Positions 326 to 18,270 are shown, counted from the first letter of the stretch. The stretch: 64,000 bases of DNA from an uncultured Rivularia sp. (GCA_963665115.1 OY762007.1:1280001-1344000); one strand, 5' to 3'. Notes: generated by a model not told the origin, from the letters alone. A program made the numbers and translations.

Positions 326-2656
326 ATGAATCTCAAATATTGGTACGTATTACTCTTCAATGTTGTATTCCTGAATCTAGGAATCCTACCCGTAACGCTG
401 GCTGAATCTGCATCACCCAAAATTAAAAATTTAGAGGAGATAGAACAGTTTAGTACCAGCGCTCAAGATTTACTCAAGGAACCGAAAAGCAACGAAAGTA
501 AAATAGCCCAAGCAGAATCAGAGAAAGAGAGAGAAGAAGAAGAAACCCAAGAAGCCGATATCGAAATTACGGTGACGGGGACTCGGAGCGATCGCCCTGT
601 GAAAGATACTCCCGGAAACATTACTGTGATTGAATCTGAGGATATTGATAAACAGTTAATCAAAGATTTAGCAGATTTAATTCGCTACGAACCGGGGGTT
701 TCTGTAAGGAATGGTCGCAACCGTGGGAATCAAGATTTTACCATTCGCGGTATTGGTGGTAATCGGGTATTGATTCAGGTTGATGGAATTCGGCAGCCTG
801 ATAATAACACTCAAACAAATACTTCACGTAACTATTTCGATTTGGAAACTCTAAAACGAGTCGAAATCATAAGAGGACCAGCTTCTACTCTCTATGGAAG
901 TGATGCTATCGGGGGTGCAGTTTCATTTATTACTAAAGACCCAGAAGACTATCTGTTTCTATCTGATGGACCTTCATACGGTAGCGTTAAATATACCTAT
1001 GACAGTACCGATGAAAGTCGTAAATTAACTGGAGTCATTGCAGCGGAAAGCGAAGATGGAAAATTTCAAGCTTCAGCAGCTTTGACTAGTACTACTGGTT
1101 CAGAGTTTAAAAATTATGGTACTGCTATAGCTGATCCTCAAGATAATAATACTTTGAACTTTATTGGGAAAATAGTCTTTAAACCTAACGACAGCAATAC
1201 TTTTAAGTTAACAGGAGAAAGATTCAACAGCAACGCCGATACTAATTTACTTAGTAGTTTGGGAACCTCTCGGGGTTTGACAATCTTTGATAGTTCTGCT
1301 GAGTATGAAAACCAGCGTTATCGCATCAGCTTAGGACAGGAATACGATAATCCCGGTAATAATTGGTTGCAGAAGTTTAGATGGCAAGTTTATTACCAGG
1401 ATGCGGAAGCGTCAGAAGAAGTTAACAGCTTGCGTGGTCGAGGTCCTGTTGTTACAACTCGTCGAGAAGATGTTAATACCTTTGAGCAAAGCGTCTTTGG
1501 TGGAGATGTCCAGTTTGAGAGCAATTTTCAAACGGGTAGTATAGACCATCGTTTAGTTTATGGTTTTGAGATATTCAATACCGATACTTCTCGTCCTCGG
1601 GATAGAACAGAAACAGATTTAAATACAGGTGCAATAAATAAGGTTGTACTTGGTGAAACCTATCCCAACAAAACTTTTCCCGACACTGAAACTTTGAGAT
1701 TTCGTCTTTACGTACAGGATGAAATTGAATTGGCTAATAATCGTCTGACTCTTATTCCTGGATTGAGCTTTGATTACTATAAACTGACAGCTAATCCAGA
1801 CCAAGATTTTCAGAATATCAACATCGACAATTACGAAGTCGAAGATTTTGATGCTTCTGCTTTTTCTCCTAAATTGGGGGTTGTCTATAAAGTGACTCCA
1901 GAATTATCAGCATACGCTCAATATGCGCGTGGTTTCCGCAGTCCTCCCTACGATGATGCGAATATCGCTTTCACTAATTTCTTATTTGGTTATACTGTTC
2001 TTCCCAACAATAATTTAGAACCTGAAACCAGCGACAGTTACGAAATAGGAGTTAAGGGTGGTTATTCCCAATTCGACTTTACTTTGGCAGGGTTTTATAA
2101 CCGCTACAAAAACTTTATAGATACTGAGCAAATTGGTACAACATCTATTGGGGGTCGAGATTTTCTCCAGTTCCAATCACAAAATATTGATTCAGCAGAA
2201 ATATATGGTGTAGAAGCAAAAGCTGAATACCGTTTGAGTCCAGCTAAACACGGTTTGAGTTTAATTGGTAGTTTAGCTTGGGCTGAGGGTAATAATTTAG
2301 AAAATAATCAACCTTTGGATACTGTAGACCCATTTCAAGCAGTAGTTGGACTGCGTTATCGGGCACCAGAAGACCGTTGGGGAAGCGAGTTAGTGACCAC
2401 ATTTGTTGCAGCAAATGACCGCGCTGCTGAAACTGGAACTAATTTATTTATTCCCGACAGCTACTTTACTTTAGATTTATTGGGCTACTATAAATTCAGC
2501 GACAAAGTTTCTTTGAATGTTGGTTTATTTAACTTACTAGATAAGAAATATTGGAAGTGGCAAGATGTGAGAGAATTGACAAATGATTCTCCAGAAATTG
2601 CACGTAGAACATTACCCGGTTTCAATGCTACTGTTGGCTTGAAAGTTATATTTTAA
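326..2656 (+). CDS. TonB-dependent outer membrane receptor, heme/hemoglobin type
   Basis: 776 aa; signal peptide, TonB box EITVTGTR, plug motifs IRGIG and RVEIIRGPASTLYGSDAIGG, FRSP and NNNLEPE motifs, NLLDKKY, C-terminal Phe. Confidence 0.9.
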   Translation: MNLKYWYVLLFNVVFLNLGILPVTLAESASPKIKNLEEIEQFSTSAQDLLKEPKSNESKIAQAESEKEREEEETQEADIEITVTGTRSDRPVKDTPGNITVIESEDIDKQLIKDLADLIRYEPGVSVRNGRNRGNQDFTIRGIGGNRVLIQVDGIRQPDNNTQTNTSRNYFDLETLKRVEIIRGPASTLYGSDAIGGAVSFITKDPEDYLFLSDGPSYGSVKYTYDSTDESRKLTGVIAAESEDGKFQASAALTSTTGSEFKNYGTAIADPQDNNTLNFIGKIVFKPNDSNTFKLTGERFNSNADTNLLSSLGTSRGLTIFDSSAEYENQRYRISLGQEYDNPGNNWLQKFRWQVYYQDAEASEEVNSLRGRGPVVTTRREDVNTFEQSVFGGDVQFESNFQTGSIDHRLVYGFEIFNTDTSRPRDRTETDLNTGAINKVVLGETYPNKTFPDTETLRFRLYVQDEIELANNRLTLIPGLSFDYYKLTANPDQDFQNINIDNYEVEDFDASAFSPKLGVVYKVTPELSAYAQYARGFRSPPYDDANIAFTNFLFGYTVLPNNNLEPETSDSYEIGVKGGYSQFDFTLAGFYNRYKNFIDTEQIGTTSIGGRDFLQFQSQNIDSAEIYGVEAKAEYRLSPAKHGLSLIGSLAWAEGNNLENNQPLDTVDPFQAVVGLRYRAPEDRWGSELVTTFVAANDRAAETGTNLFIPDSYFTLDLLGYYKFSDKVSLNVGLFNLLDKKYWKWQDVRELTNDSPEIARRTLPGFNATVGLKVIF

Positions 2657-2771
2657 TTCATCAAATTGTGTACGATCATACTGGAATCAGAAACACGATT
2701 TTTTGAAAAAACCAAGTTTATTAACATATCAAAATATAATTAAATTAGATTAGGTTCTTATTCTCATAGCC

Positions 2772-3698
2772 ATGTATAAGATTTTCAAAATTCGCACAAT
2801 TGCTATTTTATTGAATTTACTTTTAATAGCTTGTAATTCTACGACTACCGAAAATAATCAAAACTCAGAAAATTCTGCTGATTCAACTACTACAACTCAA
2901 GTAACAGAAAATCAAGTTTCTAAACCTAAAATTGAAAATGCGAAAAGAGTTGTTGCTTTAACATCATTATCAGCGGATATTATACACAGACTTGACGCGA
3001 CAAAACTAGTTGGTATTCCCGGTAGTAGATTACTGAGAAAAGATGAGCGTTTTCAGAAACTACCAGCAGTAAGTGAAGGAAGAACTCCTCCAAATATAGA
3101 AAAAATAGTTGCTCTCAAACCAGATTTGGTTATTGGTGCGGTTGGATTTCACGACCAAACGTTTAAAAAATTAAAAGATTTAGGAATTACAACTTTAGCC
3201 GGTGAAACAAATAGTTGGGGTTCTTTAATTGAACATACAAAAAAGTTAGCTGAAGCTACAAATACAGACCCAACACCTTTATTAAATAAATACGATTCAT
3301 TTCTAAAAGATATACCAGATAAAAAAGATTCTATTCTGGTACTAGTCAGCAGCCAACCAGTTTTATCTCCTAATAAAAATAGCTGGACTGGAGACTTGTT
3401 AAATAAGTTTAATGCGAATAATTTAACAGCCAACTTACAAGGGGATTCATCAGTTGGACAAGGTTACGTAACACTTTCAGAAGAAAAAATTGTTCAAGAA
3501 AATCCCGAAATATTGTTAGTAGTAGATCCATCCAGAGCAGGAGTTATTAATCAGTTAAAGTCAAAGTCTTTTTGGAATCAACTAAAAGCTGCTCAAAACG
3601 AGCAAGTTTATGTCTTTGATTATTATGGGTTAGTAAATCCTGGTAGTATTGATAAAATCGAAGAAACTAGCAATCAGTTGAAGAAAATATTGAAGTAA
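2772..3698 (+). CDS. Periplasmic binding lipoprotein of iron/heme ABC transporter
   Basis: Lipobox LIAC, RVVAL and NIEKIVALKPDLVI motifs; follows TonB receptor. Confidence 0.88.
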   Translation: MYKIFKIRTIAILLNLLLIACNSTTTENNQNSENSADSTTTTQVTENQVSKPKIENAKRVVALTSLSADIIHRLDATKLVGIPGSRLLRKDERFQKLPAVSEGRTPPNIEKIVALKPDLVIGAVGFHDQTFKKLKDLGITTLAGETNSWGSLIEHTKKLAEATNTDPTPLLNKYDSFLKDIPDKKDSILVLVSSQPVLSPNKNSWTGDLLNKFNANNLTANLQGDSSVGQGYVTLSEEKIVQENPEILLVVDPSRAGVINQLKSKSFWNQLKAAQNEQVYVFDYYGLVNPGSIDKIEETSNQLKKILK

Positions 3699-3901
3699 TA
3701 GACATCTCCGGAAATAAACAAAAACCCCTCTCCATGAACGCGTTCACGCCTTCGGCGTGCGGCTCAGCGTTTTCTCGTAGAGTATCTCTCCCCCACAGGG
3801 AGAGAGGCTTAATTTTCCCCCTTCCCTCGTAGGGAAGGGGGGTAGGGGGTTAGGTTTTACCGAAAAGTTGAAACCATACAAATCTTTTCCGGAGATGTCT
3901 A
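3699..3901. mobile_element. MITE family A (TA-flanked)
   Basis: TIRs GACATCTCCGGAAA / TTTCCGGAGATGTC flanked by TA; inverted near-identical copy at 38796-38976. Confidence 0.85.
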
Positions 3902-4106
3902 ATCGATTTCATTGGAAAACCGAAAAGCTTGTAGAGACGTGCATAGTATTGCCTCTCTACATCTAAATTCATACCCGGATTCAGCAACCTCTTTCCCCGT
4001 TCCCTAGCACTTTATTAGATAAATGGGCTTTTAAATTCTATTACTGAGAAGATAATTCGGTGACAATGGTGTAAAAATAGATCCGATAATTATTCAAAAA
4101 TGTTAA

Positions 4107-5864
4107 GTGTTCATTCTATATTTTCCATATCGAAGACTAAATAAAGCTACGTGTATTTTTATTCTCGTCAGCTTTTGTTGTTCTATTTGTAACTCCGTGC
4201 TTGCTGTAGTCCCGGAAATAATAACCCAAGCACCAAATCCGGAAGGTGACTTCAATCAAGAACGCTTTCCTCAACCAGCCCCAAGTCTCGAACCCCTAAA
4301 GCCAAAACAGCAGCAGTTACAGCCATCTCCTACATTTACTGAGCCTCCATCAAATCTTGAGGGTGACGAAGTTAAAATTATAGTTAATAAGATCCAAATC
4401 ACCGGAAGTACTGTTTTTGACTCCGAAGATTTTGAGCCAATCGTTGAGCAAGTACAAGGTAAAAGTGTCACCTTAGCAGAATTAAGAAAGGTTGCCGATG
4501 CGATTACTGAGTTGTATTTAGCACGAGATTATATTACTTCAAGAGCAATTCTAGTCAACCAGAAAATAACCGATGGTGTGGTGCAAATTCGCGTCATTGA
4601 AGGTTCCTTAGAAAAAATCGAAATTGAGGGAACCCAGCGTTTGCAAAAAAAATATGTGCGATCGCGCTTGCTCCGTGGTGGAAAAAAGCCTTTATCAAAT
4701 AGAGGTTTGGAAGAACAGTTAAGATTGTTGCGCTTTGACCCAAATATTGACAATATAGAAGCTAGTTTACTCCCTGGAAGTGATTTCGGTCAAAGTATTT
4801 TAACGGTGCGAGTCATTGAAACGGAACCATTTCAAGTAGATTTAGGAGTTGATAATTATTCCCCACCAAGCGTAGGTTCGGAAAGATTGGGGATAAATAC
4901 GGTATATCGCAATCTAATGGGTATTGGTGATGAAGTTAGAGCATCCTATTATCGTTCTACAAGGGGTGGTTCAAATATTTTCGATTTTAGTTATCGAGTA
5001 CCGTTAAATGCTAAAAATGGGACTTTACAATTAAGAACAGCAATTAACAATAATAAAGTTGTGCAGCCACCTTTTGATGCTTTTGACATCCGGGGAGAAT
5101 CGCAACTCTATGAAATCAGTTACAGTCAACCATTAATTAGAACACCCCGCGAAGAATTTGCATTATCCCTCGGTTTCAGCCTGCAAAACGGTCAAACCTT
5201 TACCTTTGCTGGAGCAACCCCCTTTGGTTTTGGCCCCGACGCAGAAGGAAACAGCCGCACCCGTGTTGTAAAATTCGGACAAGACTACGTGCGAAGAGAT
5301 GCCAACGGTGCATGGCAAATTAGGTCATTACTTAGTTTAGGAACTGGTTTATTTGATGCCACTGTTAATTCAAATCCCGTTCCCGATGCGCGTTTTTTCA
5401 GTTGGTTAGGACAGTTGCAGCGAGTACAGCGCTTGAATAAAAATCACTTATTAATTACTCAACTCGACTTGCAATTAACACCCAACGGGTTATTACCATC
5501 CCAGCAATTTGTAGTGGGTGGAGGGCAATCACTAAGGGGTTATCGTCAAAACGTGCGAGCGGGAGACAACGGGGTTCGTTTTTCCATAGAAGACAGAATA
5601 ACCGTAGGAAGAGACGCATCGGGGAATCCTTCATTACAAATAGCACCATTTTTTGATGCAGGTGTAGTTTGGAACATCGATGACAACCCAAACCTCCAAC
5701 CAAGACAAACATTTTTAGCCGGAGTCGGAATGGGAATATTATGGCAACCAATACCAAAATTAAATTTAAAACTGGATTACGGTGTACCACTGATTGAATT
5801 AGACGATAAAGGCAATAACGCTCAAGATGAAGGGTTTTACTTTAGCGTCGGTTATCAGCTTTAA
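4107..5864 (+). CDS. ShlB/FhaC/HecB family two-partner secretion transporter (TpsB)
   Basis: POTRA motifs ([21 protein letters not shown]), barrel loop motif SLRGY, aromatic C-terminal strand FSVGYQL; exact start uncertain. Confidence 0.9.
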
Positions 5865-6035
5865 GGAGTAGGGAGTAGAAAGTAGAAAGTAGAAAGTAGG
5901 GAGTAGGGAGTAGGGAGTAGGGAGTAGGGAGTAGGGAGTAGAAAGTAGGGAGTAGGGAGTAGGGAGTAGAAAGTAGAGAGTTGAAAGTAGTGAGTTGAGA
6001 GTAGTGAGATGGGAGTTGGAAGTTGGGAGTAGAGT
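5865..6035. repeat. STRR-type heptamer tandem repeat (GGGAGTA/GAAAGTA)n
   Basis: About 20 degenerate 7-mers directly after the tpsB stop. Confidence 0.9.
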
Positions 6036-6174
6036 CATTCCAGTTAATTTCCGTAGTGCGTTAGCGAAGCATATAACACTTGTTTCTTCCGCAGGAATTA
6101 CTATAAAGTACATATTCTTTCTTATTATCCGCTAATTAAGCATCTATTCCCGACGGCGTTACTCATTACTTTCG

Positions 6175-6277
6175 ACTCACAACTCTCTACTCACTACTCA
6201 CAACTCTCTACTCACAACTCTCTACTCTCTACTCACTACTTACTACTTACTACTCTCTACTCACAACTCTCTACTCT
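6175..6277. repeat. STRR-type heptamer tandem repeat (ACTCTCT/ACTCACA)n
   Basis: Opposite orientation to the 5865 tract, abutting the FHA-CHAT stop. Confidence 0.85.
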
Positions 6278-9200
6278 CTACCAAGGGCTACCAACTAAAG
6301 TAAAAGATGACCAATAATAAGGATGTACGAGTTTTTTAGTTCTTCCAGCTAAGGATGGAATGGGAATAATATTTTTAGATTGCGGTAGCTGTAATATTCC
6401 TTTTTCTAAAAACATCTCTCCTTTAATCATGGCAATTTGAGTTTGTCGTAAAGCTTCGGCTTTGATGGGTGTTTGTTTCAACTGCTGATAAAACTGCGCC
6501 ATTAATCCCAAGGTACCTTCATCGCTAACATACCAAAGACTACCTAATGCAGATTTTACCCCAGCTTGAACGGCAAGTCCGGCAAAACCTAATTCTGCTT
6601 CTCTGTCTCCTAATGCTGTTCGACAAGCACTTAAAGTTAATAATTCAACTGGTGGGTTATTCCATCCCATTTTTCTAACTTCATCCAACCGCAATTTTGT
6701 ATTTGATAGTTGAATGTAGGAATTTTGGATTTTTCCGGGACGAAATTCTGCATGAGTTGCTAGGTGAATAATGCCAAAAGGCTGTTCTCTACGTTGAGAT
6801 TTGAGGTTTTCTAAAGTGAAACTATTATTGAGAAATGATTTACCTTTCCATTGTTTGGAAATATTATTAATTTCTAAAGATGCCGCAGGTAAAGGATTTT
6901 GCTCTTCAAATTCTGAAGCTCCCATTGCTAAAATTTTAGCTTGTTTAATATCGGTATAATTGGTATTCGTCAGGCTGAGACTGGGCATTAAACCAAGACT
7001 ATATTGTTCTACAAGAAAACTGTTACCGTCATGTAATGCAGCAAATGGTATGGAACGTAATCCTACATCTGTAACAAAAGTTAAGTTTTCAATTCCTTCG
7101 GCTTGCAATTCTTCTTGTACCGGAGCTATCAACCATTGATAAAGCTGTTGCGCGGATTTTAAATAAGTGGTTGTGCTGCTTTTTCGAGGATTGGAAACTT
7201 CACGTTGAAATTTTCGCGCTACTTTTAAAATTTCTGCACGGGTTGCACCGGGTATTTTTTTACGAATTGGCTTTCCTTTAGCTGTAACAATGAGGATTTC
7301 TAAGACATCGCTGTCTTTTTTAAGATTAGTTTTTGCATTTTTGAGTTTTGAATTTTCGAGATTATTCTCAGCTTCGGGAGAAAGGCTTTCAGGTACAAAC
7401 ATTGCATATACTAAAGCTGGTTTTATACCACTAGCTTTTTCAACCTCACTCAATATGTCTCGTGCTTCTGGTAATCCTTTAAGGTTAATCTTACCTATAT
7501 CGACCAGATGACTTTTAAATGCATTAGTAAAAGAATCTTCTACCTCACCCATCATCATATCAACTTCAACTCGATTATTTGCCTTGAATGTTGTATCTGG
7601 TGTGAATAAAAGTGGTGCTTCCGATTGTGGTGGTGCTGGTAAATTCGGTTCCTGTTCGGGTTGAGCAACATTTACGTTAATTTGAGCAGGAGTAGAAACT
7701 GAAATTTTATCATTAGCAACAATTGTAAAAGCATTTATTTCCCCCGTTGTATTGGTAGGAGGAGTATATTCTAAAGTATCTTCTGAGGTGATAATATCTC
7801 CAGAATTTGCTTCGCTACCGTTAATTTTTAAAGTTCCTCCGACTGAAATTTCGTTTATTTGTAGTTCTGTAATATCGTTATTTGCATCGCTAACCTGAGT
7901 AGCAATATCTGCCAAACTAAAGGTAATAGGTTGATTATCTTCGGCAATATTTAGAGTAGGATTAACTGTGACTTCGGGAGGAGTATTATTAAAAGTAATG
8001 CCGATCTTTCCTTGAGTTTCTGTACCGGCATTGGGAAATTCAGTAGTAGGTGAAATGATATCATCACCAGCATTAATTGCATTAGCGGTACCGTTAATGG
8101 TAGCATCTCCAACAATAAACGGAACGTTTTCTATAGTTCCATCGTGACGAATTTCGACAGTTCCAGATGATTCTTCTCCGGCTGTATAAATGGTATTTTC
8201 CGATGCTAATTCGATTAATTTTAATTCAAGACCTTCGTCTATTTCTATTTCTTCCGGAAGTCGAAACCATTCCGGTAATTCTAGTATTTGGACAACATCT
8301 TCTACCTCCTCGCCCTGTAAATCACCACCTATATATAGTCCTCCCCTTACGGTACCATTGTCAGCAATAATTTTGACATCTCCACCTTTCCCAACAGGAA
8401 TATTTCCTTCATCAAAATTGGTAGTGTTTGAGGTTTGAACGCGGTCAAAAATGATATTTTCTCCAGAAGTAATATTTACATTACCAGCAACAATGTTATT
8501 AGCAGAAGCACCCGACACAACAAAAGATTCAATATCCTGTATCACAATATTGCCGTCTGCTGTTAAATTGATATTCCCAGCTATTCCATTATCAGAATTA
8601 GCAAACAAATCAACAGAAGAAGTAATTGGGCCAGTAAGAATATCGCCGATTGCTTTTAAATTAACTTCTCCTCCAAAGGTATTATTAGATAATGGAATGA
8701 AGAATGATAAACCATTAACATTTACAGAAGAATCAATTGCGGCTACAAAAATATCACCACCTGAATCAATATTAATTTTTCCTGCTGAAATATCATTTGC
8801 GCTTCCTATAAATACGGAAGAATCGATACCGTCTTGTACAACAATATTTCCTCCCGCTTTTAAGTTTATTTCCCCAGCAGAAATTTGGTTCGCATCCTCA
8901 GATAAGCTTGCAGAAGAAAGAATAGTGTCTTCGACAAAAATCTTACCCCCAGCTTCCAAATTAATATTTCCTCCAGTAATATTATTTGCACCGAATAAGT
9001 TGATAGAAGAATCAATATCTATCGTAGAAATATCACCCCCTGCTTTTAAGTTTATTTCACCTCCAATTACATTATTTACAGGTGTTTCTTCCAAACTGTA
9101 TTCAGTCAATATATTACCTGTAGTAATATTTCCGGGAGCGCTGATAATTACTCTACCAGCAGTTGCAGTAACTTCATTGTCAAAAAGACTGGTGGAAATA

Positions 9201-10795
9201 TCCCCATTAACTGTTACATTTGCAGGTGACGTAATTGAACCGCTATTATTAAAAGATGTACCTTCAACAGTAGTAGGTGGATTATTCAAACCAAAAGGAT
9301 AATTAAAAGTAGGTTCTTCAAGCTCGCTAACTCCAGCCCTTAAAATTAATGCAGCTTCATTCGCTAAAATTTGAGCATCAGCCGAACAACTTGATTCGCA
9401 TAAAATAGCATCCGGGCTGGTAATTTCAATATCACCTTCTACCGTAATGCTACCTTTCGACTCAACTTTTAAAGCCGCACCTGCATAACTACCAAAGGTA
9501 ACATCTTCCTCAGAACTAATAATTGGGTCGTAAAGACTGATAAACTTACCACCATCACCCCGTAAATTCAGAATTGAAAATTTACCACCACTAGCAAAGT
9601 GAGCATCACCAGAAATTATGCCATCGCTAACTAAACTCAAATCGCCACCACTGACAAAAGGTGTTTTATCCAAGTGATTCAAAGCTAAAATATCAACTTG
9701 GCGATCGCCTTGAATATACAAATCTCCACCAGCAAGGGCAATAAATGGATTCTGGGCACTATCCCGCACCCGCACGGTATCTTTTGCTAATAAAGTCAGG
9801 TTTTCTGTGGTTTGTAACTGACTTTCTAGAAATGTTAAATTACCTGGGGCTGATAACAAAGCATTTTGAGCGTTTAAAGTTTTAACAGTTACATCACCTT
9901 GATTTACCTGTAAACTCGAACCTTTTAATTCAACTTCACCGTTACTATTGCGAACCAATTCTGTAACATGATTAGCATCTCCTCCAGTAAGCATTTGAGG
10001 TAAGGAAGCTATCGATAAATTCCATGCTTGAGGTTGAGTTTTTGCTGTAGAAATCGGCTGAATTTCCAAACTCAATAAACTTCCCGGTTGACTCAAACGC
10101 ACCAAATTTTTACCGGGAATCGCAGACACCGTAATATTTCCCAACGGTGCTTCTAACTTTCCAGTACTCGCAACTGTACCACCAAGCAAAGCTAAATTAC
10201 TTTTTTCGGTAACTCCCAGGTTTCCAGCATTGATAATCGCTGCCGGTTGACTCATGGTAAAAGCAAAACTATTAGGTTTACCCGTGAGAATCGCATAATC
10301 GTTTTTACCAAAAGCATTCAACCAATTATTCCCAAATCCAATACCGTTAGCAGTTGTAGCGGTAAAATCACCGGGTACATTTAAACTCGCATTATTACCA
10401 AACACAATTCCCGATGGATTGATCAGAAATAAATTTGAATTTCCCCCAGTCAACTGTATTAAACCATTTATAACCGAAGGATTACCCCCAGTTACCCGCC
10501 CAAATATATTTTGAATTGCAGGATTGCTAAGAAAATTCGCAATCTGATTTTTATTTAATCCCAACTCTTGAAAACTGTGAAACAGATTTTTTCCATCTTG
10601 AGAAAATTGTCCACCAGTAATATCGAATTGATTGCCATTAGGAGTGACAACAGTACCCGTTTTATCGGCTGCGGGAATTACTGATTGTGCTTGTATTTTT
10701 TCTGAATTAAATATAAATGGTACTGAGCTAACAATTATAGGCAATATTGAGGTGAGAGCAGAGAAAACACTTGCACGACGAATTAATTTGTACAT
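6278..10795 (-). CDS. Filamentous hemagglutinin TPS domain + beta-helix repeats + cadherin-like domain + CHAT (caspase-like) protease
   Basis: Signal peptide; TPS motifs NLFHSFQ and LINPSGIVFG; GGEINLKAGGDI-type repeats; AED...YTP cadherin-like unit; CHAT dyad IIHLATHA and LSACRTA; HPYYWSSF end. Confidence 0.9.
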   Translation of the reverse strand: MYKLIRRASVFSALTSILPIIVSSVPFIFNSEKIQAQSVIPAADKTGTVVTPNGNQFDITGGQFSQDGKNLFHSFQELGLNKNQIANFLSNPAIQNIFGRVTGGNPSVINGLIQLTGGNSNLFLINPSGIVFGNNASLNVPGDFTATTANGIGFGNNWLNAFGKNDYAILTGKPNSFAFTMSQPAAIINAGNLGVTEKSNLALLGGTVASTGKLEAPLGNITVSAIPGKNLVRLSQPGSLLSLEIQPISTAKTQPQAWNLSIASLPQMLTGGDANHVTELVRNSNGEVELKGSSLQVNQGDVTVKTLNAQNALLSAPGNLTFLESQLQTTENLTLLAKDTVRVRDSAQNPFIALAGGDLYIQGDRQVDILALNHLDKTPFVSGGDLSLVSDGIISGDAHFASGGKFSILNLRGDGGKFISLYDPIISSEEDVTFGSYAGAALKVESKGSITVEGDIEITSPDAILCESSCSADAQILANEAALILRAGVSELEEPTFNYPFGLNNPPTTVEGTSFNNSGSITSPANVTVNGDISTSLFDNEVTATAGRVIISAPGNITTGNILTEYSLEETPVNNVIGGEINLKAGGDISTIDIDSSINLFGANNITGGNINLEAGGKIFVEDTILSSASLSEDANQISAGEINLKAGGNIVVQDGIDSSVFIGSANDISAGKINIDSGGDIFVAAIDSSVNVNGLSFFIPLSNNTFGGEVNLKAIGDILTGPITSSVDLFANSDNGIAGNINLTADGNIVIQDIESFVVSGASANNIVAGNVNITSGENIIFDRVQTSNTTNFDEGNIPVGKGGDVKIIADNGTVRGGLYIGGDLQGEEVEDVVQILELPEWFRLPEEIEIDEGLELKLIELASENTIYTAGEESSGTVEIRHDGTIENVPFIVGDATINGTANAINAGDDIISPTTEFPNAGTETQGKIGITFNNTPPEVTVNPTLNIAEDNQPITFSLADIATQVSDANNDITELQINEISVGGTLKINGSEANSGDIITSEDTLEYTPPTNTTGEINAFTIVANDKISVSTPAQINVNVAQPEQEPNLPAPPQSEAPLLFTPDTTFKANNRVEVDMMMGEVEDSFTNAFKSHLVDIGKINLKGLPEARDILSEVEKASGIKPALVYAMFVPESLSPEAENNLENSKLKNAKTNLKKDSDVLEILIVTAKGKPIRKKIPGATRAEILKVARKFQREVSNPRKSSTTTYLKSAQQLYQWLIAPVQEELQAEGIENLTFVTDVGLRSIPFAALHDGNSFLVEQYSLGLMPSLSLTNTNYTDIKQAKILAMGASEFEEQNPLPAASLEINNISKQWKGKSFLNNSFTLENLKSQRREQPFGIIHLATHAEFRPGKIQNSYIQLSNTKLRLDEVRKMGWNNPPVELLTLSACRTALGDREAELGFAGLAVQAGVKSALGSLWYVSDEGTLGLMAQFYQQLKQTPIKAEALRQTQIAMIKGEMFLEKGILQLPQSKNIIPIPSLAGRTKKLVHPYYWSSFTLVGSPW

Positions 10796-10832
10796 TTGAA
10801 TAAGAATTAATTTAAATAAAATACGATTTGTT

Positions 10833-10955
10833 CGTAGTGCTGCCTAAGACTATCGTCTCGCTCCGCTAACGCAGCGTGTCCGTCAGGACAAGCATCTTGC
10901 TCGCTAGTTATTACGAGTTAGCTATTACGAGCGAGCATCTTGCTCGCACTACAAA
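10833..10955. repeat. REP/SDR-like element (GTAGTG...GCATCTTGCTCGC...CACTAC family)
   Basis: Related copies at 18378-18645, 27539-27720, 35240-35262, 38743-39066, 61594-61618. Confidence 0.75.
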
Positions 10956-11337
10956 TGTGTAACTTTCATAACTAACAAGGTTAACCATTCGTAGCTTTAC
11001 CTATATTGTCATATTAAATACTGAATGGCATTATCTAAAAGCAAAAAATATCCGATTATTTCAGTATTAATCGCTAGTTTTTTTCATCGCTATTGCTATT
11101 TCTCTTTACAATACATCTGGAACGAGTTTATCTAAAAAGCTTATAGATAGGCTCTGGCAGTAGTTAATAATCGTGCTATAAAGGTAGGAATAAAAAATAA
11201 TAATACTTCAGTAAATACACTTAACAAAAAGCTTCAAAAAGCTGAATTGTTATTCGCTTTTGATTGGCTTTACTAGTTTTTACCGAACAAAATTGAACAA
11301 TATAAAATTAAATGTTTTTCAAAGGAATATTGATACT

Positions 11338-13578
11338 ATGCAGAGCCTGTTAAAAAAGAAAATCTGGCAATGGCGTAATGTCTTAATTACTGCTCCGAGT
11401 GCTACAGCTATTGTTCTGTTGCTACGTTTCAGTGGACTGCTACAGATGCTGGAATTAGCTGCATTTGACCAATTATTTATACGGCGTTTGTCAGAAAAGC
11501 CGGATGAACGAATTGTAATTGTAGATATTGATGAGAAAACTGTAACTAAGTTAGGCTACCCAATTGCAGATAAAAAGCTAGCTCAAATTTTAGAGAATAT
11601 AAAGCAGCACAAACCACGGGCAATTGGGCTTGATATTTACCGGGATATACCAGTCGGTGAAGGTTATGATTCTCTAGTCAAAATATTTGAATCTACACCA
11701 AACTTAGTAGGAGTACAGAAAGTAGTTGAAAGTGCAGATAGTTCTGCTGTCAATCCACCACCAGCATTAAAAAAACTAGATCGAGTAGGAGCAAATGACT
11801 TAGCGATTGATGGAGATGGTAAAATTCGTCGCAGCTTTTTCTATTTGTCAGATAAAAAAGGTAATAGTGTATTCAGCTTTTCATTTAAACTTGCTTATCT
11901 TTACCTTGAAGACATGAAAATTAAAGTAGAACAGTTAGAGAATGATTCGATCAAAGTTGGTAAAGTTATATTCAAACCTTTCGCTAGTAATGATGGTGGT
12001 TATGTTCGCGTCTCAGACAAAGGTTTTCAGGTTCTAATAAATTACCGTGGAGATATAAAAAAGTTTCAGAGGGTATCTATATTAGATGTTTTAGAGAATC
12101 GAGTTGATGAAAAGCTGATACGCGGACGCATTGTACTTGTAGGTTCAACAACATCAAGCCTCAAAGATATATTTTATACACCTTATAGCAGTACTCTTTT
12201 CAGAATTCCCAGACGCATGGCTGGAGTCACGATTCATGCTAATGCTATCAGTCAAATATTAAATGCCGAATTAGAAAATCGTCCGGTAATTAAAACTTGG
12301 AATTGGCTATTTGGATTTGTGTGGATTTATATTTGGTCTTTACTGGGAGCTACATTAATATGGCTGCTTAGGTCAAGTAAGCTAAAGATAATACCTCCAT
12401 TTAGTCTTTTTTTGGCTGGCTCTTGTCTAGTTAGTATTAGTTACCTTGCTTTTATTTACGGTTGGTGGATTCCACTTGTACCGCCAATGTTTGGATTGGT
12501 AGGCTCTGCGGTTGGTGTAACGGCTTATTTAGCTCAAAATGCTAGTAGGATTCGTAAAACCTTTGGACGCTATCTCAATGATGAAGTTGTTGCTAATTTA
12601 CTCGAAAGTCCCGAAGGTCTTAAGTTAGGTGGTCAGCGTCGGAATATAACAATTTTTACTTCAGATTTGCGAGGTTTTACTGCCACTTCGGAACGATTAC
12701 CCGCTGAAGAAGTAATCAAAATCATTAATTTGTACCTGAGATATATGGCAGATGTAATAACCGAATATCACGGAACCATTGATGAGTTTATGGGAGACGG
12801 TATTCTGGTACTTTTCGGCGCACCTACAGCCAGAGAAGACGATGCTACCAGAGCAATCGCTTGTGCTGTAGCGATGCAGCAAGCAATGGAACCAGTCAAT
12901 CAGAAAATCAAAGAAATGGGATTACCTAAATTAGAAATGGGTATCGGTATAAATACTGGGGAAGTCGTAGTAGGAAATATTGGTTCGGAGAAACGGACTA
13001 AGTATGGAATTGTCGGCAAGCAAGTTAATTTAACTTATCGGATTGAATCCTATACAGTTGGGGGACAAATTTTCATTTCTGAATCCACTTTAAAACAAGC
13101 CGACCCAATTGTAAAAATTATCGGAGAGCGGGAAGTCAAACCAAAAGGAGTTCAGAACCCAATAACTATTTATGAAGTGGGTGGAATTGCTGGGGATTAC
13201 AATCTTTATTTGAAGCAAGAAGAAGAAGTATTTTTTACCTTATCACAACCGATCGTATTTGAATATGCGGTTTTAGATGGCAAAGATATTAGTAATACTC
13301 TTCAAGTGGCGAAATTAGTTAAGCTTTCAGAAAATGCCGCAGAAGTTTATATAGATTCCAGTACAGATGAAATTATTTCCATTCCCCAGGCATTAACAAA
13401 TATGAAAATGAATCTATTGATATCTATAAATGAAGCAGAAAAAAGTGGTGACATCTATGCTAAAGTCTTAGAAAAACCAGCAGCAACAACAAATAGTTTT
13501 TACATCCGTTTCACTAATAAACCACCCGAAGTCGAAGCATATTTTGATTTAATGTATAAGTCGATGAAAAAAGCTTAA
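11338..13578 (+). CDS. CHASE2 sensor + TM helices + class III nucleotidyl cyclase (Cya2-like, probable guanylyl cyclase)
   Basis: CHASE2 motifs IVIVDIDE, AIGLDIYRD, GVTIHAN; cyclase motifs FTSDLRGFT, DEFMGDG, GIGINTG, VNLTYRIE; ATG 11338 preferred over TTG 11260. Confidence 0.88.
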   Translation: MQSLLKKKIWQWRNVLITAPSATAIVLLLRFSGLLQMLELAAFDQLFIRRLSEKPDERIVIVDIDEKTVTKLGYPIADKKLAQILENIKQHKPRAIGLDIYRDIPVGEGYDSLVKIFESTPNLVGVQKVVESADSSAVNPPPALKKLDRVGANDLAIDGDGKIRRSFFYLSDKKGNSVFSFSFKLAYLYLEDMKIKVEQLENDSIKVGKVIFKPFASNDGGYVRVSDKGFQVLINYRGDIKKFQRVSILDVLENRVDEKLIRGRIVLVGSTTSSLKDIFYTPYSSTLFRIPRRMAGVTIHANAISQILNAELENRPVIKTWNWLFGFVWIYIWSLLGATLIWLLRSSKLKIIPPFSLFLAGSCLVSISYLAFIYGWWIPLVPPMFGLVGSAVGVTAYLAQNASRIRKTFGRYLNDEVVANLLESPEGLKLGGQRRNITIFTSDLRGFTATSERLPAEEVIKIINLYLRYMADVITEYHGTIDEFMGDGILVLFGAPTAREDDATRAIACAVAMQQAMEPVNQKIKEMGLPKLEMGIGINTGEVVVGNIGSEKRTKYGIVGKQVNLTYRIESYTVGGQIFISESTLKQADPIVKIIGEREVKPKGVQNPITIYEVGGIAGDYNLYLKQEEEVFFTLSQPIVFEYAVLDGKDISNTLQVAKLVKLSENAAEVYIDSSTDEIISIPQALTNMKMNLLISINEAEKSGDIYAKVLEKPAATTNSFYIRFTNKPPEVEAYFDLMYKSMKKA

Positions 13579-13834
13579 ATATAGAAAATGGGGCATGGAT
13601 CAAAACAATTCAAAATTATCAATTAAAAAAACGGTCATGCCGCATAGGGCATGGGAAATATAAAATTGCTAATCGAAATAGTGACACGAATTCTAAACAA
13701 TATCTGTTGATTTACTTATAATTGCTATTATCTTGAACAAAATTATCTATAAAAGCTAGGAGAAAGTACTGCAATATAATTACAGTTTTAAAGTATTGTT
13801 TAAGTACTCTTCTAACCCAACCTACAGAAAAAAT

Positions 13835-13865
13835 AAAAAAAAAGGGATGCTCATCACAACCCTTT
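13835..13865 (-). terminator. Intrinsic terminator downstream of globin gene
   Basis: Minus strand AAAGGGTTG-TGATGAG-CATCCCTTT followed by T-run. Confidence 0.65.
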
Positions 13866-13981
13866 GATAAAGATAAAAATCACCATCTACCTAATCTAAT
13901 TTTTTGAGTTACCACACTCCATAATTTTATTTACCGCGATAAAACGGCTTCTTTTCGTGTCTAACCCAACCGACAAAATAC

Positions 13982-14338
13982 TTACTTGTTCAAGATAGAG
14001 CCTTTCAATTTTTCAACTGCTTCCATTGCTGCTTTTGCGTCGTCAGCAGATACTCCAGAACTAGTCATCGAATTACTTAAATGCTTGGTAATCGCATCAA
14101 AATGTGGCTGTTGTAAACCCATTCCGGTGTGTGTTTTGTCCATGCTACGTCCTTTATAGTCTTTGGGACCACCAAGGATTAGAGAAAAGAAACCAATTTG
14201 ATGGTCGCGTTGCTTTTTCATGTCAGTATTGGCAAAAAAGCCACTGACGGTGCTATCTGCCATGATGCGGTTATGAAAATCATCGACCACTTTTTCAATG
14301 GTAGGTTGTCCGCCGATTTTTTCGTATAATGTACTCAT
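13982..14338 (-). CDS. glbN: Group 1 truncated hemoglobin (cyanoglobin)
   Basis: 118 aa; TLYEKIGG, VVDDF, FFANTDM, LGGP..Y.GRSM...H proximal His. Confidence 0.88.
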   Translation of the reverse strand: MSTLYEKIGGQPTIEKVVDDFHNRIMADSTVSGFFANTDMKKQRDHQIGFFSLILGGPKDYKGRSMDKTHTGMGLQQPHFDAITKHLSNSMTSSGVSADDAKAAMEAVEKLKGSILNK

Positions 14339-14865
14339 TTCCTGTTCCTTTGAAGCGAATATGTACAGTGTTGAAGTACTAAACTAAACCTCTACTTAGT
14401 AATATTAGAATTTCGACTCTATGACTAAAGTTTTGATTCAATGAATCACTACTTTGAGTTGCTATTGAGATTAGAAATTCCCAGTCGCTAAGTTAAAGCT
14501 TAGTAGTTTTTACTAGATTTAATTTGTCGATTACTGCATATTTTGGAGTTTTACAGTATCGTATTCCCAGATAATTACCAAGGACTTTTCTTTGCAAAAT
14601 TCTTGGGTTTTATGCTGACCTAATTACCCTATCGCATCATCGAAATATTGACGACAGTAAGGCTGTGGTGTTCATTTTATCGGTATACGTATTTTGCTAT
14701 AGTTCGAGTCAGCAAAAGCATTGATTTGCAAGCGAATAGTGCATTCTGCAAGCAAAATAGTTTCAATAAAAGTTAAACTTAATTTAATATTTGGAATTTT
14801 AAATCAACAAAACAAAGTTTGTCAGTCACAAATAAGAACTAGTATATTGTTAGTATTCCTTCCCC

Positions 14866-14899
14866 AAAATAAAAAAGGGCTGCTCATCACAACCCTTTT
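14866..14899 (-). terminator. Intrinsic terminator downstream of DUF4870 gene
   Basis: Minus strand AAAAGGGTTG-TGATGAG-CAGCCCTTTTTT; near-identical to 13835-13865. Confidence 0.7.
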
Positions 14900-14915
14900 C
14901 AAAAAAACCTTCTGA

Positions 14916-15308
14916 TTAAGTTGAAGCGATTAAAACAATCGAAAAATAAACGGATAACGGAAACGGCTCATCTGGATTGCCAAAACAGTGCAATAAAGCC
15001 ATAATCGTCAATCCCCAATGCAGTAGAAAACCAAACGCAACTACTGGGAAAAATATAATTCCACCAATACCAAAAGTTAGGAAAGATAAAATCCCGATTG
15101 GTACTCCAATTAGAGTTGCCCAAAACCAAACATTAAGGTGAAAATTAATTGATTCTTTGGCACTACCTTTAACAACTGGATCGTCGGAAGTAAAATAAAT
15201 GGCAATTGGAACGCCGATAGAAAATATTGTTGTACTAAAGAAAATCGCCCCATGACACAAACTAGATAGCAGTTTACGCTTATCAGAATTAAATGTACCT
15301 TCTTGCAT
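14916..15308 (-). CDS. DUF4870 family membrane protein (frameshift near 3' end)
   Basis: LCH...P...VK..AKESINFHLN motif; removing one base at 14959-14963 restores the typical end PFRYPFIFRLF with stop at 14930. Confidence 0.8.
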   Translation of the reverse strand: MQEGTFNSDKRKLLSSLCHGAIFFSTTIFSIGVPIAIYFTSDDPVVKGSAKESINFHLNVWFWATLIGVPIGILSFLTFGIGGIIFFPVVAFGFLLHWGLTIMALLHCFGNPDEPFPLSVYFSIVLIAST

Positions 15309-15625
15309 CTGTTGGGTTCCTTAACTTGTAATATATTTAAATTCTAACGTTTATATTATCAGATTCGTATTGAAGTTTACCGTAAATCAGCCATTCTTCC
15401 CGATTCTCTTTATTTAATTAGGCTTTTAACAACTATTTAAGAGCAGTTTATGAGGTTTACCGAACCTTATAGCGGTTAAATCCACCAATAATAAGTGGGA
15501 TGGGCTTTGCTGGCACGTCTTAATTCATTCGATAATGTTGCATACTGATATTGGCTTAGTGGTTATAGGCATATATATTTATATAAAACTAGCACTGGTT
15601 ATAAATTAAACATCAGGTAATTATT

Positions 15626-16759
15626 TTGAACGCTAATACAGACACAGTTTTGAATAACCATTATGAAATTGCCAGTCGATTTGAAATACCGGGCAAAGTT
15701 ATCAAAGTTGAAGCATTTGGGCATGGCAACATCAACGGCACTTTTCTTGTTACCTTGGATTCTACAGAAGAAAAGCATTTCATTTTACAAAGCATCAATC
15801 AAAGCGTGTTTCACAAACCCGAATTGGTAATGCGGAATATAAGTACTTTTACCAATCATGCCCATCAACGTTTGCAAGATTCTCCCCTTACCTCGAATCG
15901 CCGTTGGGAAGTACCAAAAGTATTGTTAACTCAAAATAATCAAGACCATTTTATTGATACTGACAATTCATTCTGGCGGGCAATTGGTTTTATTGATAAC
16001 GCTGAAACTTTTGACACTATTATAGATAACAAACACGCGAGTGAAGTTGGTTATGCTCTGGGAATGTTTCATAATCTGATCGGCGATTTACCTGTAGATA
16101 AATTAGCTGATACTCTACCGGGATTTCACGTTACACCGATTTATTTAGAGCAATACGAAAATGTAGAAACGCAATATAATAAGTCCTTAAAATCTCCCGA
16201 AGTTGAATATTGCTTGCAATTTATTGATAACCGTAAAACTTGGGCCAGCATCTTAGAAAATGCTCAAATGCAAGAACGTCTGTGTTTGCGTCCCATCCAC
16301 GGCGATCCGAAAGTAAATAACGTAATGATTGACACCCGCAATGGAAAAGCTATCAGTATTATTGATTTAGATACCGTTAAACCGGGATTAGTGCATTACG
16401 ATATTGGAGATTGTTTGCGCTCTGGTTGTAATCCTTTAGGAGAAGAAACCGAATATTGGCAGACGGTAACTTTCAATACTGATATTTGCGAGTCACTTTT
16501 GGGCAGTTATCTTTCAGTAGCAAAAGAATTTCTTACTGAAAGCGACTATATATATATGTATGATGCGATTCGTTTGATTGCTTTTGAATTAGGGTTGCGG
16601 TTTTTTACAGATTATTTGGCGGGTAATGTTTACTTTAAAGTTAAATATCCAGAACACAATCTTTCTAGGGCTTTAGTACAGTTTAAGCTGACTGAAAGTA
16701 TTGAAATGCAAGAAAGTGCGATTCGGAAAATTATCTCAAGTTTTAGTAATAGAAAATGA
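15626..16759 (+). CDS. APH-family phosphotransferase (N-acetylhexosamine 1-kinase-like)
   Basis: G.GNIN.TF, HGDPKVNN, IDLDT, DIGDCLRS motifs. Confidence 0.8.
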   Translation: MNANTDTVLNNHYEIASRFEIPGKVIKVEAFGHGNINGTFLVTLDSTEEKHFILQSINQSVFHKPELVMRNISTFTNHAHQRLQDSPLTSNRRWEVPKVLLTQNNQDHFIDTDNSFWRAIGFIDNAETFDTIIDNKHASEVGYALGMFHNLIGDLPVDKLADTLPGFHVTPIYLEQYENVETQYNKSLKSPEVEYCLQFIDNRKTWASILENAQMQERLCLRPIHGDPKVNNVMIDTRNGKAISIIDLDTVKPGLVHYDIGDCLRSGCNPLGEETEYWQTVTFNTDICESLLGSYLSVAKEFLTESDYIYMYDAIRLIAFELGLRFFTDYLAGNVYFKVKYPEHNLSRALVQFKLTESIEMQESAIRKIISSFSNRK

Positions 16760-17295
16760 ATAAAATGAAAAAACATACTTTTTCCCTACAACCATTTCAA
16801 CAGACAAAAACTGATTTGCAAATTACAGGTGAAATCATTCGAGATAATAATATATTAACTGTTCATTATCGGCTCAAAGGCGATTTAGGAGAAATTGAAA
16901 TACCGACTGTAGAAAAACTTCCAATGCGTAAAAATGAGTTATGGGAAACAAGTTGCTTTGAACTTTTTTTAGGAATCAAAGATACTCCTATTTATTGGGA
17001 ATTCAACCTTTCGCCAAGTGGAGATTGGAATATATATTTTTTTGAGAGCTACCGACAATCAATGCAGTTAGAGAATAAAGTTGAATCTCTTCCATTTAAT
17101 ATTTTGCGCGATTCTAATGCTTTGTATTTAGGATTGGAATTTAATCTAGACTGCTTATCTATAGTAGAAAACCTTGATGTTTCTATTACTACTGTAATTA
17201 AAAGCAAAGAAGGTGATATTAGTTACTGGGCGCTGAAACATTGTGGGGAAGAAGCAGATTTTCATTTGAGGGATAGTTTTTTGTTAGATATCTAA
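16756..17295 (+). CDS. DOMON-like domain protein
   Basis: ELWETSCFELFL, YWEFNLSPSGDW, YWALKH...ADFH motifs; overlaps upstream stop. Confidence 0.75.
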   Translation: MNKMKKHTFSLQPFQQTKTDLQITGEIIRDNNILTVHYRLKGDLGEIEIPTVEKLPMRKNELWETSCFELFLGIKDTPIYWEFNLSPSGDWNIYFFESYRQSMQLENKVESLPFNILRDSNALYLGLEFNLDCLSIVENLDVSITTVIKSKEGDISYWALKHCGEEADFHLRDSFLLDI

Positions 17296-17298
17296 CAA

Positions 17299-18270
17299 TC
17301 AACCACCAAACATTCTATCAATATCATCCCCTACTGAAGCACCGTGACGTGAGTTAACCCGCAAGGATGTTTGATTTGCAGACAAATTGTAAGTTAAAGG
17401 TTGAGTTTGAAATAAATTTTCTTTTCCTTCCTCTATCAAACTTTCAACCGGATACTTTGTCATTACAGTTTTGATTGCTACAACTCTTTCTTTAATAGTG
17501 GGATGGTTTTGATCAAATTTAACTCCCGCAGTACGATTGAGTACCGCCATTGCACGCAAACATCCTTGTCGATCGAAACCTGCTTTGACAGAAGCAAGAT
17601 AAGCAATTTTATCGGCTTCAAATTCATTTTCTCGGTTTTGTTTTTCGATGTTTTCTTGTAATCCTGCCGTCTTTTTCTCTACTATTGCGTTGATACGTCT
17701 TTGCTGTTTCCTAAATCTTCTGCTGCTTCGATTATCTAAAACACCGTTAACAACAGTACCAATAGTTCCTCCAATTACCCGTCTGACAACAAAATCACCG
17801 ACTGCTGCAACTGGAGAGGTTTTTCTTTTTCTATTTAAAACTTGTGCTATTGCTTCTTCTCTAAATTGAGCAACCTTATCTGCTTTTTCTACGTTGCTTA
17901 TAACTTGATGCCGTTGCTTATGGTGTGCCATTTCATGACTAATCATACAGGCTAGAGCCGAAGCATCACCACCTAATTGTTCCAACGCACCATTGTAGAT
18001 AGGTATCAAATTGGCATTCCTTGCAAAGGCATGAGTATCATATTTAGCAATGCGAACAACCTGCCAAGGACGGGTATCGTATTCATTCGCACGCGCTAAT
18101 CTATCAACTATACGGTAAAGCGCGTAAAAGTCTGGGGGCAATTGTGTTTTAGCGTTTTGGTAAATAGATTTACTATCAGAAGTCGCTTCTGCTTTGGCGA
18201 TAAGGTTAGCTGGGAATAGTAGGCATAAGCAAGCTAAAGTAGCTGGTAACTTAGTTTTTAATATACTCAT
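17299..18270 (-). CDS. M48 family metallopeptidase, exported
   Basis: Signal peptide, SHEMAH (HExxH), E.EAD, HP...ER motifs. Confidence 0.85.
   Translation of the reverse strand: MSILKTKLPATLACLCLLFPANLIAKAEATSDSKSIYQNAKTQLPPDFYALYRIVDRLARANEYDTRPWQVVRIAKYDTHAFARNANLIPIYNGALEQLGGDASALACMISHEMAHHKQRHQVISNVEKADKVAQFREEAIAQVLNRKRKTSPVAAVGDFVVRRVIGGTIGTVVNGVLDNRSSRRFRKQQRRINAIVEKKTAGLQENIEKQNRENEFEADKIAYLASVKAGFDRQGCLRAMAVLNRTAGVKFDQNHPTIKERVVAIKTVMTKYPVESLIEEGKENLFQTQPLTYNLSANQTSLRVNSRHGASVGDDIDRMFGG

Follow-up and report, generated by a model that had tools for sequence, protein, structure and literature searches.

The window studied here is a stretch of 64,000 nucleotides from an uncultured Rivularia sp. 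(GCA_963665115.1 OY762007.1:1280001-1344000). It contains a trio of genes: tpsB, coding for an outer-membrane exporter; the gene of a TpsA filament protein fused to a CHAT protease (hereafter the fusion); and the gene of a membrane receptor with a CHASE2 domain and a cyclase domain. Genes for TpsB, TpsA, exported CHAT, DUF928 and CHASE2 form a five-gene envelope set that is real, conserved and apparently undescribed, and the trio would be a fused, rearranged copy of it. Five things were observed: the anatomy of the trio, the conserved catalytic residues of the protease, the recurrence of the set, an invariant Arg in DUF928, and small secreted proteins ending at this Arg.

A tentative mechanism, which we hold to be somewhat short of probable, may be proposed: the fused protease would mature DUF928 to an Arg-ended peptide that regulates the window cyclase. 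It can be decomposed as follows: (i) the filament would be threaded outward by TpsB, the protease staying in the periplasm; (ii) the protease would cut exported DUF928 after the invariant Arg; (iii) the Arg-ended peptide would bind CHASE2 and change the synthesis of cyclic GMP (cGMP), the sign of this response being conjectural; (iv) the state of the filament would gate the protease. A sequence-only reading of the window had proposed that an exported CHAT protease makes or processes the cue read by CHASE2. This is still the best reading, and the gene types do travel together; however, DUF928, the likely substrate and source of the ligand, was not named there and lies outside the window.

Recurrence of the five-gene set

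Sixty stretches of ≤ 20 kb centred on CHASE2 genes (from 150 among 379 matches in 52 genomes carrying a fusion relative) were compared with 20 control loci centred on dCache_1 sensors. DUF928 is present within ~10 kb at 31 of the 60 CHASE2 loci and at none of the 20 dCache_1 loci (Fisher p 9e-6), TPS (two-partner secretion) domains at 12 and none, respectively (p 0.03), and any partner at 35 and 1 (p 2e-5); these p values are overstated, kin not being independent and the genomes having been selected for carrying a fusion relative. A separate CHAT is found at 14/60 CHASE2 loci vs. 1/20 dCache_1 loci.

Inside this genome, TPS, separate CHAT and DUF928 occur within 8 kb of 13, 10 and 10 of 17 CHASE2 loci, vs. 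means of 0.8 (maximum 5), 1.5 (maximum 7) and 0.5, respectively, in 2000 random placements. The operon order tpsA-TPR-CHAT-DUF928-CHASE2 recurs in loci L087, L089, L103, L110, L115, L123 and L128, with tpsB added in L103 and L110. Metagenome loci keyed on exported-type CHAT alone (80 of 579 confirmed, 2-17 kb each, given without taxonomy) contain DUF928 in 39 cases, TpsB in 36, TPS in 34 and CHASE2 in 33; their G+C content ranges from 0.33 to 0.73, which suggests many non-cyanobacterial hosts. Neighbourhood statistics were among the checks put forward in the sequence-only reading; in the genome, in the CHASE2 loci and in the metagenome loci alike, the gene types of the set are linked far above chance.

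The hidden Markov models used for the searches were built from this genome's paralogues (plus the DUF928 and CHASE2 alignments A3 and A4 for the metagenome scan), and distant members may be missed. The literature searched, i.e., without subscription journals, gave no description of the five-gene set; neighbourhoods of this kind may be tabulated in the source data of PMC8195603, and a passage of PMC5587647 notes one WD40-CHASE2-DUF928 cluster.

DUF928 and the candidate peptide ligand

DUF928 begins with an export leader and an N-terminal tip that has no structure in the model (i.e., predicted to be disordered); an Ig-like domain and a helical domain follow. Its fold matches that of MtxA (4Z29) with E 8e-4 and TM-scores of 0.39/0.50, a weak match among many Ig folds. 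Arg62, which lies in the tip, is invariant in the 46 DUF928 sequences compared (46/46); it is usually preceded by Gly-Gly-small-Ser/Thr, then comes Gly. Among 150 DUF928 relatives the motif is found twice in 9, and a second, terminal copy of the Arg motif in 5. DUF928 and CHASE2 genes are often translationally coupled: of 34 pairs, 11 have a gap between −3 and 20 bp.

At 6 of the 29 CHASE2 loci without DUF928, an open reading frame (ORF) of 76-116 residues with a hydrophobic leader ends exactly at the motif Arg. Such ORFs are found at none of the 31 CHASE2 loci with DUF928, 20 controls and 60 fusion loci. All six flank one CHASE2-PAS-GGDEF clade. This genome contains an Arg-ended ORF of 87 residues with a hydrophobic leader, on the minus strand, which ends at 2155651, ~1 kb downstream of the CHASE2 gene 2156720-2158741. 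This ORF, near 2.156 Mb, is a candidate ready-cut ligand. Two other genome-wide hits of the small-ORF filter look spurious, and the gaps 10790-11340 and 13570-15700 of the window contain no peptide-precursor ORF.

The fusion seems to be devoid of a ligand of its own, since the DUF928-tip profile scores 13.8 at best in it vs. 16-32 in DUF928. A tip-profile hit of 19.3 in the cyclase falls in its cytoplasmic catalytic domain.

The CHASE2 receptor and its predicted output

The membrane CHASE2 cyclase announced by the sequence-only reading is indeed present, and its nucleotide type can be sharpened from a generic cyclase to a predicted guanylyl cyclase of the Cya2 type. The catalytic domain matches Synechocystis Cya2 (2W01) with E 1.7e-84, Glu509 and Gly583 being aligned to the specificity pair. 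The Cya2-type features, i.e., CHASE2, membrane segments, class III cyclase and Glu-Gly pair, are all found. This pair is reported to confer GTP preference (PMC6005667), and cGMP is the output predicted from its retention. In the CHASE2 cyclases of cyanobacterial loci the specificity site is Lys in 14/32 and Glu in 13/32. Elsewhere in the set the receptors have GGDEF, GGDEF-EAL, histidine kinase, SpoIIE or Ser/Thr kinase as their terminal domains; judged by domain content, the input side of these receptors is conserved and the output is swapped. Searching the PDB with the CHASE2 profile gave no meaningful match.

The fused protease and its location

The N-terminus of the fusion has a hydrophobic leader, TPS and TIGR01901 matches above cut-off, and beta-helix repeats read from the sequence. 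The features of two-partner (type Vb) secretion are thus present, i.e., a TpsB with POTRA and an Omp85-type barrel and a TpsA with leader, TPS and repeats. tpsB adjoins the fusion in the window and in L062, and the window TpsB likely threads the filament outward. The genome has 5 ShlB matches vs. 32 TPS matches.

The catalytic His and Cys had been read as intact and prove to be so: in two alignments (60 fusions) His1344, His1348 and Asp1425 are invariant and Cys1391 is invariant or nearly so. The AlphaFold2 model of the last 445 residues (pLDDT 90.5, pTM 0.90) shows a predicted caspase-like fold with a pseudo-protease subdomain. It matches Csx29 (7Y9X; Z 27.7, rmsd 3.6, 340 aligned) and separase (5FBY; Z 24.5, rmsd 3.2, 315 aligned) over nearly the whole length, and DdvA (8ROT) with Z 17.5-18.0. 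PDB sequence searches with the protease domain gave no meaningful match. From its conserved catalytic residues and predicted fold, the fused protease looks active; its C-terminus is conserved across orders (43-55% identity).

Separases require a P1 Arg held by an Asp (PMC10317155), and HetF cleaves after Arg117 (PMC9457339). Asp1425 resembles the P1-binding Asp of separase by position only, lying 34 residues past the Cys vs. 41 in human separase. The fused protease may likewise prefer Arg.

The export of the CHAT protease, as it had been postulated, has to be divided in two. The export features are found; the departure of the protease from the cell is not retained, periplasmic location being judged likelier. 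The C-terminal parts of the TpsA proteins CdrA, HMW1, HxuA and FHA precursor are kept in the periplasm (PMC5422565), and the sister CHATs of the fusion have a leader and no TPS domain; we thus infer that the protease sits in the periplasm, where the outward-pointing filament has its inner end. The statement that characterised CHAT proteases act mostly in cytoplasmic defence needs widening: HetF has a developmental role (PMC9457339), and the TPR-CHAT of DdvA is periplasmic (PMC11506125).

The split TpsA proteins of the set, i.e., those not fused to CHAT, have a tail of ~90 residues that contains Cys and a Gly-Arg/Lys-Gly-Gly-type site. The motif is found in 30/49 (28 of these with Arg or Lys; many of the others are fragments) and in 0/60 fusions. 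To judge by sequence, the protease takes the place of this tail in the fusions. Many split tpsA ORFs of this genome end early or without a tail, being pseudogenes or frameshift errors.

Fusion family and CHAT phylogeny

TPS and CHAT are both present in 117 of the 120 best fusion homologues, and fusion matches at E ≤ 1e-60 occur in 58 of 201 genomes of the phylum. In this genome the window fusion is the only TPS plus CHAT fusion among the 32 TPS and 46 CHAT matches. In the CHAT tree (FastTree, one in three fusion rows kept; the CHASE2 tree is a quick version) the fusions form, together with two short exported CHATs, a clade with support 98. It is adjoined by a TPR-CHAT clade (97), most members of which have signal-peptide-like leaders. 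All exported CHATs are grouped with 85% local support only. CHAT-CHASE2 fusions and a HetF-like protein lie far from them; G000 7497039, on a distant branch, is presumably the HetF orthologue. L068 (Ca. Entotheonella) has a fusion of beta-helix, TPR-like helical repeats and CHAT that overlaps the beginning of a CHASE2 cyclase. The CHAT of this fusion falls among the TPR-CHATs in the tree; fusion thus arose more than once. L199 is a TPS-TPR-CHAT.

The fusion clade contains signal-peptide CHATs of 430-460 residues made of the protease domain alone (L055:149-1531, L107:3658-4950). A family-2 glycosyltransferase is present in 45 of the 120 best fusion homologues. In the 7/7 that were scanned (P0020, P0027, P0030, P0037, P0060, P0087 and P0096) it is N-terminal (residues 6-165), before TPS, and a hydrophobic leader lies between glycosyltransferase and TPS in the two sequences inspected. 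This domain may glycosylate the filament in the cytoplasm, then stay behind at export. A second recurring block without CHASE2, i.e., tpsB, a small exported protein, trypsin-like proteases and a TPS-CHAT fusion, is found in L006, L008, L010 and L027. In L002, L003, L052 and L150 a MinD/ParA-family gene stands beside TPS-CHAT fusions with short CHASE2 proteins (567-592 residues, no Pfam output domain) and beside a CHAT of 450 residues on a Nostoc plasmid. Neither this MinD-CHAT region nor an Azospirillum plasmid CHAT pair has a CHASE2 link.

History of the locus

L061, L062 and L064 retain the divergent pair of fusion and cyclase, and DUF928 adjoins tpsB in L062. Downstream of the orthologous cyclase in L064 come tpsA, DUF928, an Apyc1-family metallo-beta-lactamase and TPR-CHAT. 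The orthologues of the last three (65, 74 and 78% identity) stand together at 1.058-1.063 Mb here, ~225 kb off. In the sister clade of the CHASE2 tree, DUF928 is adjacent to 6/7 receptors. The trio thus represents a displaced fragment of a larger cluster with a second protease, and the likely DUF928 partner of the window cyclase is G000:C1:1062371-1063225.

The metallo-beta-lactamase (L064:16545-17351, G000:C1:1061359-1062177), which lies between DUF928 and TPR-CHAT, is likely a cyclic-nucleotide phosphodiesterase, possibly ending the signal. Synteny with L061 and L062 ends just past the cyclase (window 13806). The genes after the cyclase in L062 have their orthologues at 1.086-1.101 Mb on the other strand (window side ~1.29 Mb), which suggests an inversion of ~190 kb.

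Weighing of the proposed mechanism and its alternatives

The case is weakest where it ties this fused protease to this cyclase, and a series of observations weighs against the proposed mechanism. Within flanks of ~7.5 kb, CHASE2 is found near 7/60 fusion loci, DUF928 near 7/60 and TpsB near 15/60, thus the link of the fused form to CHASE2 is loose. Most of the immediate fusion neighbours scanned (68/97) are housekeeping genes without relation to the set, and in L063 the cyclase is present but the fusion is not. DUF928 lies outside the trio, with its nearest matches ~60 kb and ~110 kb away. The original cluster of the cyclase has an exported TPR-CHAT of its own, able to act without the fusion. 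In addition to the overstatement of the Fisher values mentioned above, separate CHAT, taken by itself, is not significantly more frequent than in the small control (Fisher p 0.10). Craspases, the closest structural matches, cleave after Met or Leu (PMC11506125), so that the Arg specificity of the fused protease is not assured. The six ready-cut peptides may represent a single event since all belong to one clade; in the wider CHASE2 group of 14 rows, 8 of the 13 loci fetched have no ready-cut peptide hit.

Several of these points would be expected if the circuit were run by the separate exported TPR-CHAT. The fusion would then be a stand-alone surface filament, and its protease would trim or shed the fusion itself or other proteins of the envelope; it would lie beside the cyclase because related cassettes accumulate in the same islands. 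This is the strongest of the alternatives and still unlikely. It accounts for the absence of CHASE2 near 53 of the 60 fusion loci, for the separate CHAT clade of the fusions, for L063 and for the TPR-CHAT of the original cluster. Shedding by a periplasmic protease is known for CdrA (PMC5422565), and the split TpsA tails have their own Gly-Arg/Lys-Gly-Gly-type site. Nevertheless, CHASE2 is near fusions 7 times vs. 1.1 expected from gene density, the divergent pair is retained in three loci, the independent L068 fusion stands directly before a CHASE2 cyclase, and all 60 fusions are devoid of the tail site.

Another possibility, which we regard as improbable, is that DUF928 works uncut: its Arg tip would dock it to the receptor as an adaptor or inhibitor, and the protease would act by destroying this contact or by clipping CHASE2, without any free peptide. 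The large conserved folded body of DUF928 (Ig-like plus helical), its frequent translational coupling to CHASE2 and the fact that an invariant Arg can serve binding are all in agreement with it, as is DdvA, whose proposed switch consists in the clipping of a membrane regulator (PMC11506125). Secreted proteins that stop at the Arg and tandem or terminal copies of the motif are, on the contrary, what a released peptide predicts.

It is very unlikely that the fusion is a contact-dependent weapon or a defence protein delivering its protease to other cells, with an unrelated cyclase. TPS systems do include CdiA-type inhibitors (PMC5422565), and the nearest structures are those of defence craspases. 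However, the C-terminal domain is conserved rather than polymorphic, no small immunity-like gene recurs among the neighbours, and the sister CHATs, without TPS domain, belong to signalling operons. Finally, a chance meeting of three common gene types in a large genome (46 CHAT, 32 TPS and 19 CHASE2 matches in 8.7 Mb) is hardly credible, being contradicted for the whole set by the genome permutation, the control sensors and the metagenome loci.

Comparison with known systems

The five parts of the set do not stand at one locus in the window, DUF928 being absent near the trio. DdvA-DdvS of Myxococcus xanthus (PMC11506125; 8ROT) shares with the proposed mechanism a periplasmic CHAT of the separase/craspase type that is proposed to start trans-envelope signalling. 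DdvA differs in being a single membrane anti-sigma factor proposed to cut itself, whereas the window has a TpsA-borne protease, a cyclase output and, by implication, a separate precursor. The DdvA-type features (cytoplasmic anti-sigma domain, one membrane helix, ECF sigma partner) are absent: the fusion starts with leader and TPS, and there is no sigma factor among the 10 ORFs scanned (326-18270).

In the NsrA-CyaK/CyaD1/CyaD2-Clr pathway of Sinorhizobium meliloti (PMC13001267), CHASE2 cyclases also answer a protein-type cue via an outer-membrane beta-barrel. This pathway differs by a plant-protein cue and cyclic AMP as messenger, and the passages describing it name no TpsA, CHAT protease or DUF928. 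Cya2 of Synechocystis PCC 6803 (2W01; PMC6005667) shares CHASE2, transmembrane segments and the Glu-Gly cyclase; the passages on it give no input. HetF-PatU3 of Anabaena PCC 7120 (PMC9457339) and separase (PMC10317155) have in common with the fusion a His-Cys protease of the CHAT/separase family, and these two cut after Arg. In contrast, HetF acts on a cell-division regulator, and neither HetF nor separase forms part of a secreted filament.

CdrA/CdrB with LapG, HMW1, HxuA and FhaB (PMC5422565) share a periplasmic C-terminal part of TpsA, and the tail of CdrA is cut by a periplasmic protease. There the messenger controls the protease, whereas the layout of the window suggests that the protease, fused or co-encoded, feeds the receptor. 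In magnetotactic bacteria the gene of MtxA, an Ig-like plus helical protein with a signal peptide, stands just before a CHASE2 cyclase gene (4Z29; PMC4439547); the main text of that paper names no CHAT, DUF928 or haemagglutinin.

The fusion has no TPR, unlike craspase (the TPR-CHAT of type III-E CRISPR), and the genes flanking the trio (TonB receptor, binding protein, globin, DUF4870, APH) include no Cas7-11/Csx30. It differs from contact-dependent inhibition and polymorphic toxins by a conserved C-terminus and by the absence of a recurring small neighbour. EACC2-caspase-CHASE2 fusions (PMC8195603) are one chain, vs. separate genes in the window. Caspase-CHASE2 fusions occur elsewhere in this genome, as a distant CHAT clade.

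Significance

A peptide matured by a protease and read by a membrane receptor is a general logic known from other systems. No description of the present parts in combination, as one unit, was found, and the window adds a fused form, in which the protease is physically tied to the filament. From the comparison come a candidate ligand short enough to be synthesised, its precursor and the maturing enzyme. CHASE2 occurs widely as a sensor domain; its ligands were called unknown in 2023 (PMC10581220), and with these three in hand the question becomes testable with peptide, receptor domain and protease. If the mechanism is true, it would give (i) an input to guanylyl cyclases of the Cya2 type and to diguanylate cyclases of the Dgc2 type, the latter linked to gliding and biofilm (PMC10581220); (ii) a role beyond cell death or defence for the many exported caspase-like proteases of cyanobacteria; (iii) a function for DUF928 (6773 representatives at E ≤ 1e-10).

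A wider and rather unlikely extension is that the surface filament, threaded through TpsB, serves as a feeler. Contact, tension or damage on the outside would activate the separase-like protease at its periplasmic end, and the protease would free an Arg-ended peptide hormone from DUF928; CHASE2 domains in many phyla would be the receptors of such peptides, converting surface contact to cGMP in the present case.

Anatomy of the window

The sequence-only description of tpsB converging on a fusion of 1505 residues, itself divergent from the CHASE2 cyclase, was confirmed by ORF and Pfam searches (Table 1). Nearest named relatives are Rivularia. In Pfam, CHAT covers residues 1213-1503 of the fusion, and CHASE2 and Guanylate_cyc cover residues 49-364 and 461-615 of the cyclase. 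Two of the features formerly given are kept in part. The cadherin-like unit is below the cut-off here (16.5 vs. 26.5 bits) and passes it in the homologue P0029 (29.3 bits). The signal peptide is seen as a hydrophobic stretch (10-28) and an AxA-Q-type site (35-37), on the basis of a hydropathy scan and not of a signal-peptide predictor.

Table 1. Features of the trio and of the surrounding DNA (positions in the window).
Feature	Position	Strand	Remarks
TpsB, ShlB/FhaC-type outer-membrane exporter	4107..5864	+	585 residues; POTRA_2 E 1.9e-21, ShlB E 3.6e-30 (Pfam)
Heptamer repeat array, first	5865-6032		24 copies; between converging tpsB and fusion, sense opposite to second array
Heptamer repeat array, second	6160-6281		17 copies; between converging tpsB and fusion, sense opposite to first array
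TpsA-CHAT fusion	6278..10795	-	1505 residues: export signal, TPS, beta-helix repeats, cadherin-like unit, Pro-rich linker, protease
Separase/Csx29-type protease domain (predicted)	6281..7615	-	residues 1061-1505; predicted fold and invariant columns
Invariant Asp1425	6523-6521	-	protease residue
Cys1391	6625-6623	-	protease residue
His1348	6754-6752	-	protease residue
Cadherin-like unit, weak	7667..7987	-	residues 937-1043; PF17892 16.5 bits, under cut-off
TPS secretion domain	10037..10663	-	residues 45-253 of fusion; PF05860 E 4.9e-41
Divergent intergenic region, fusion/cyclase	10796..11337		repeat insertion ~10826-10987, unaligned in L061 or L062
Membrane CHASE2 receptor with Cya2-type cyclase, predicted guanylyl	11260..13578	+	772 residues
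CHASE2 domain	11404-12351	+	
Cyclase domain	12640-13104	+	specificity pair Glu509 + Gly583

Judged from relatives, the cyclase more likely starts at the ATG at 11338 than at 11260, and the divergent gap measures 464-542 bp. A promoter scan of this gap was at chance level (4 found vs. 2.5 ± 1.8 expected). In three public runs, two of which may belong to the source study, each of the three genes is covered by contigs without frameshift and the junction downstream of the cyclase is spanned; the heptamer arrays (5865-6281) have a very high repeat depth.

Short dispersed repeats are found at 3700-3900 and 10826-10987, and the piece 3696-3899 is missing from the public run X4. Upstream of tpsB, the TonB-dependent receptor and the periplasmic binding protein (326-3698) are probably unrelated to the trio since they are not seen at the orthologous position in L062. 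In the DUF4870 gene (14916-15308) one base at 14961 is missing in two public runs, thus the 3' end of this ORF may be an assembly error.

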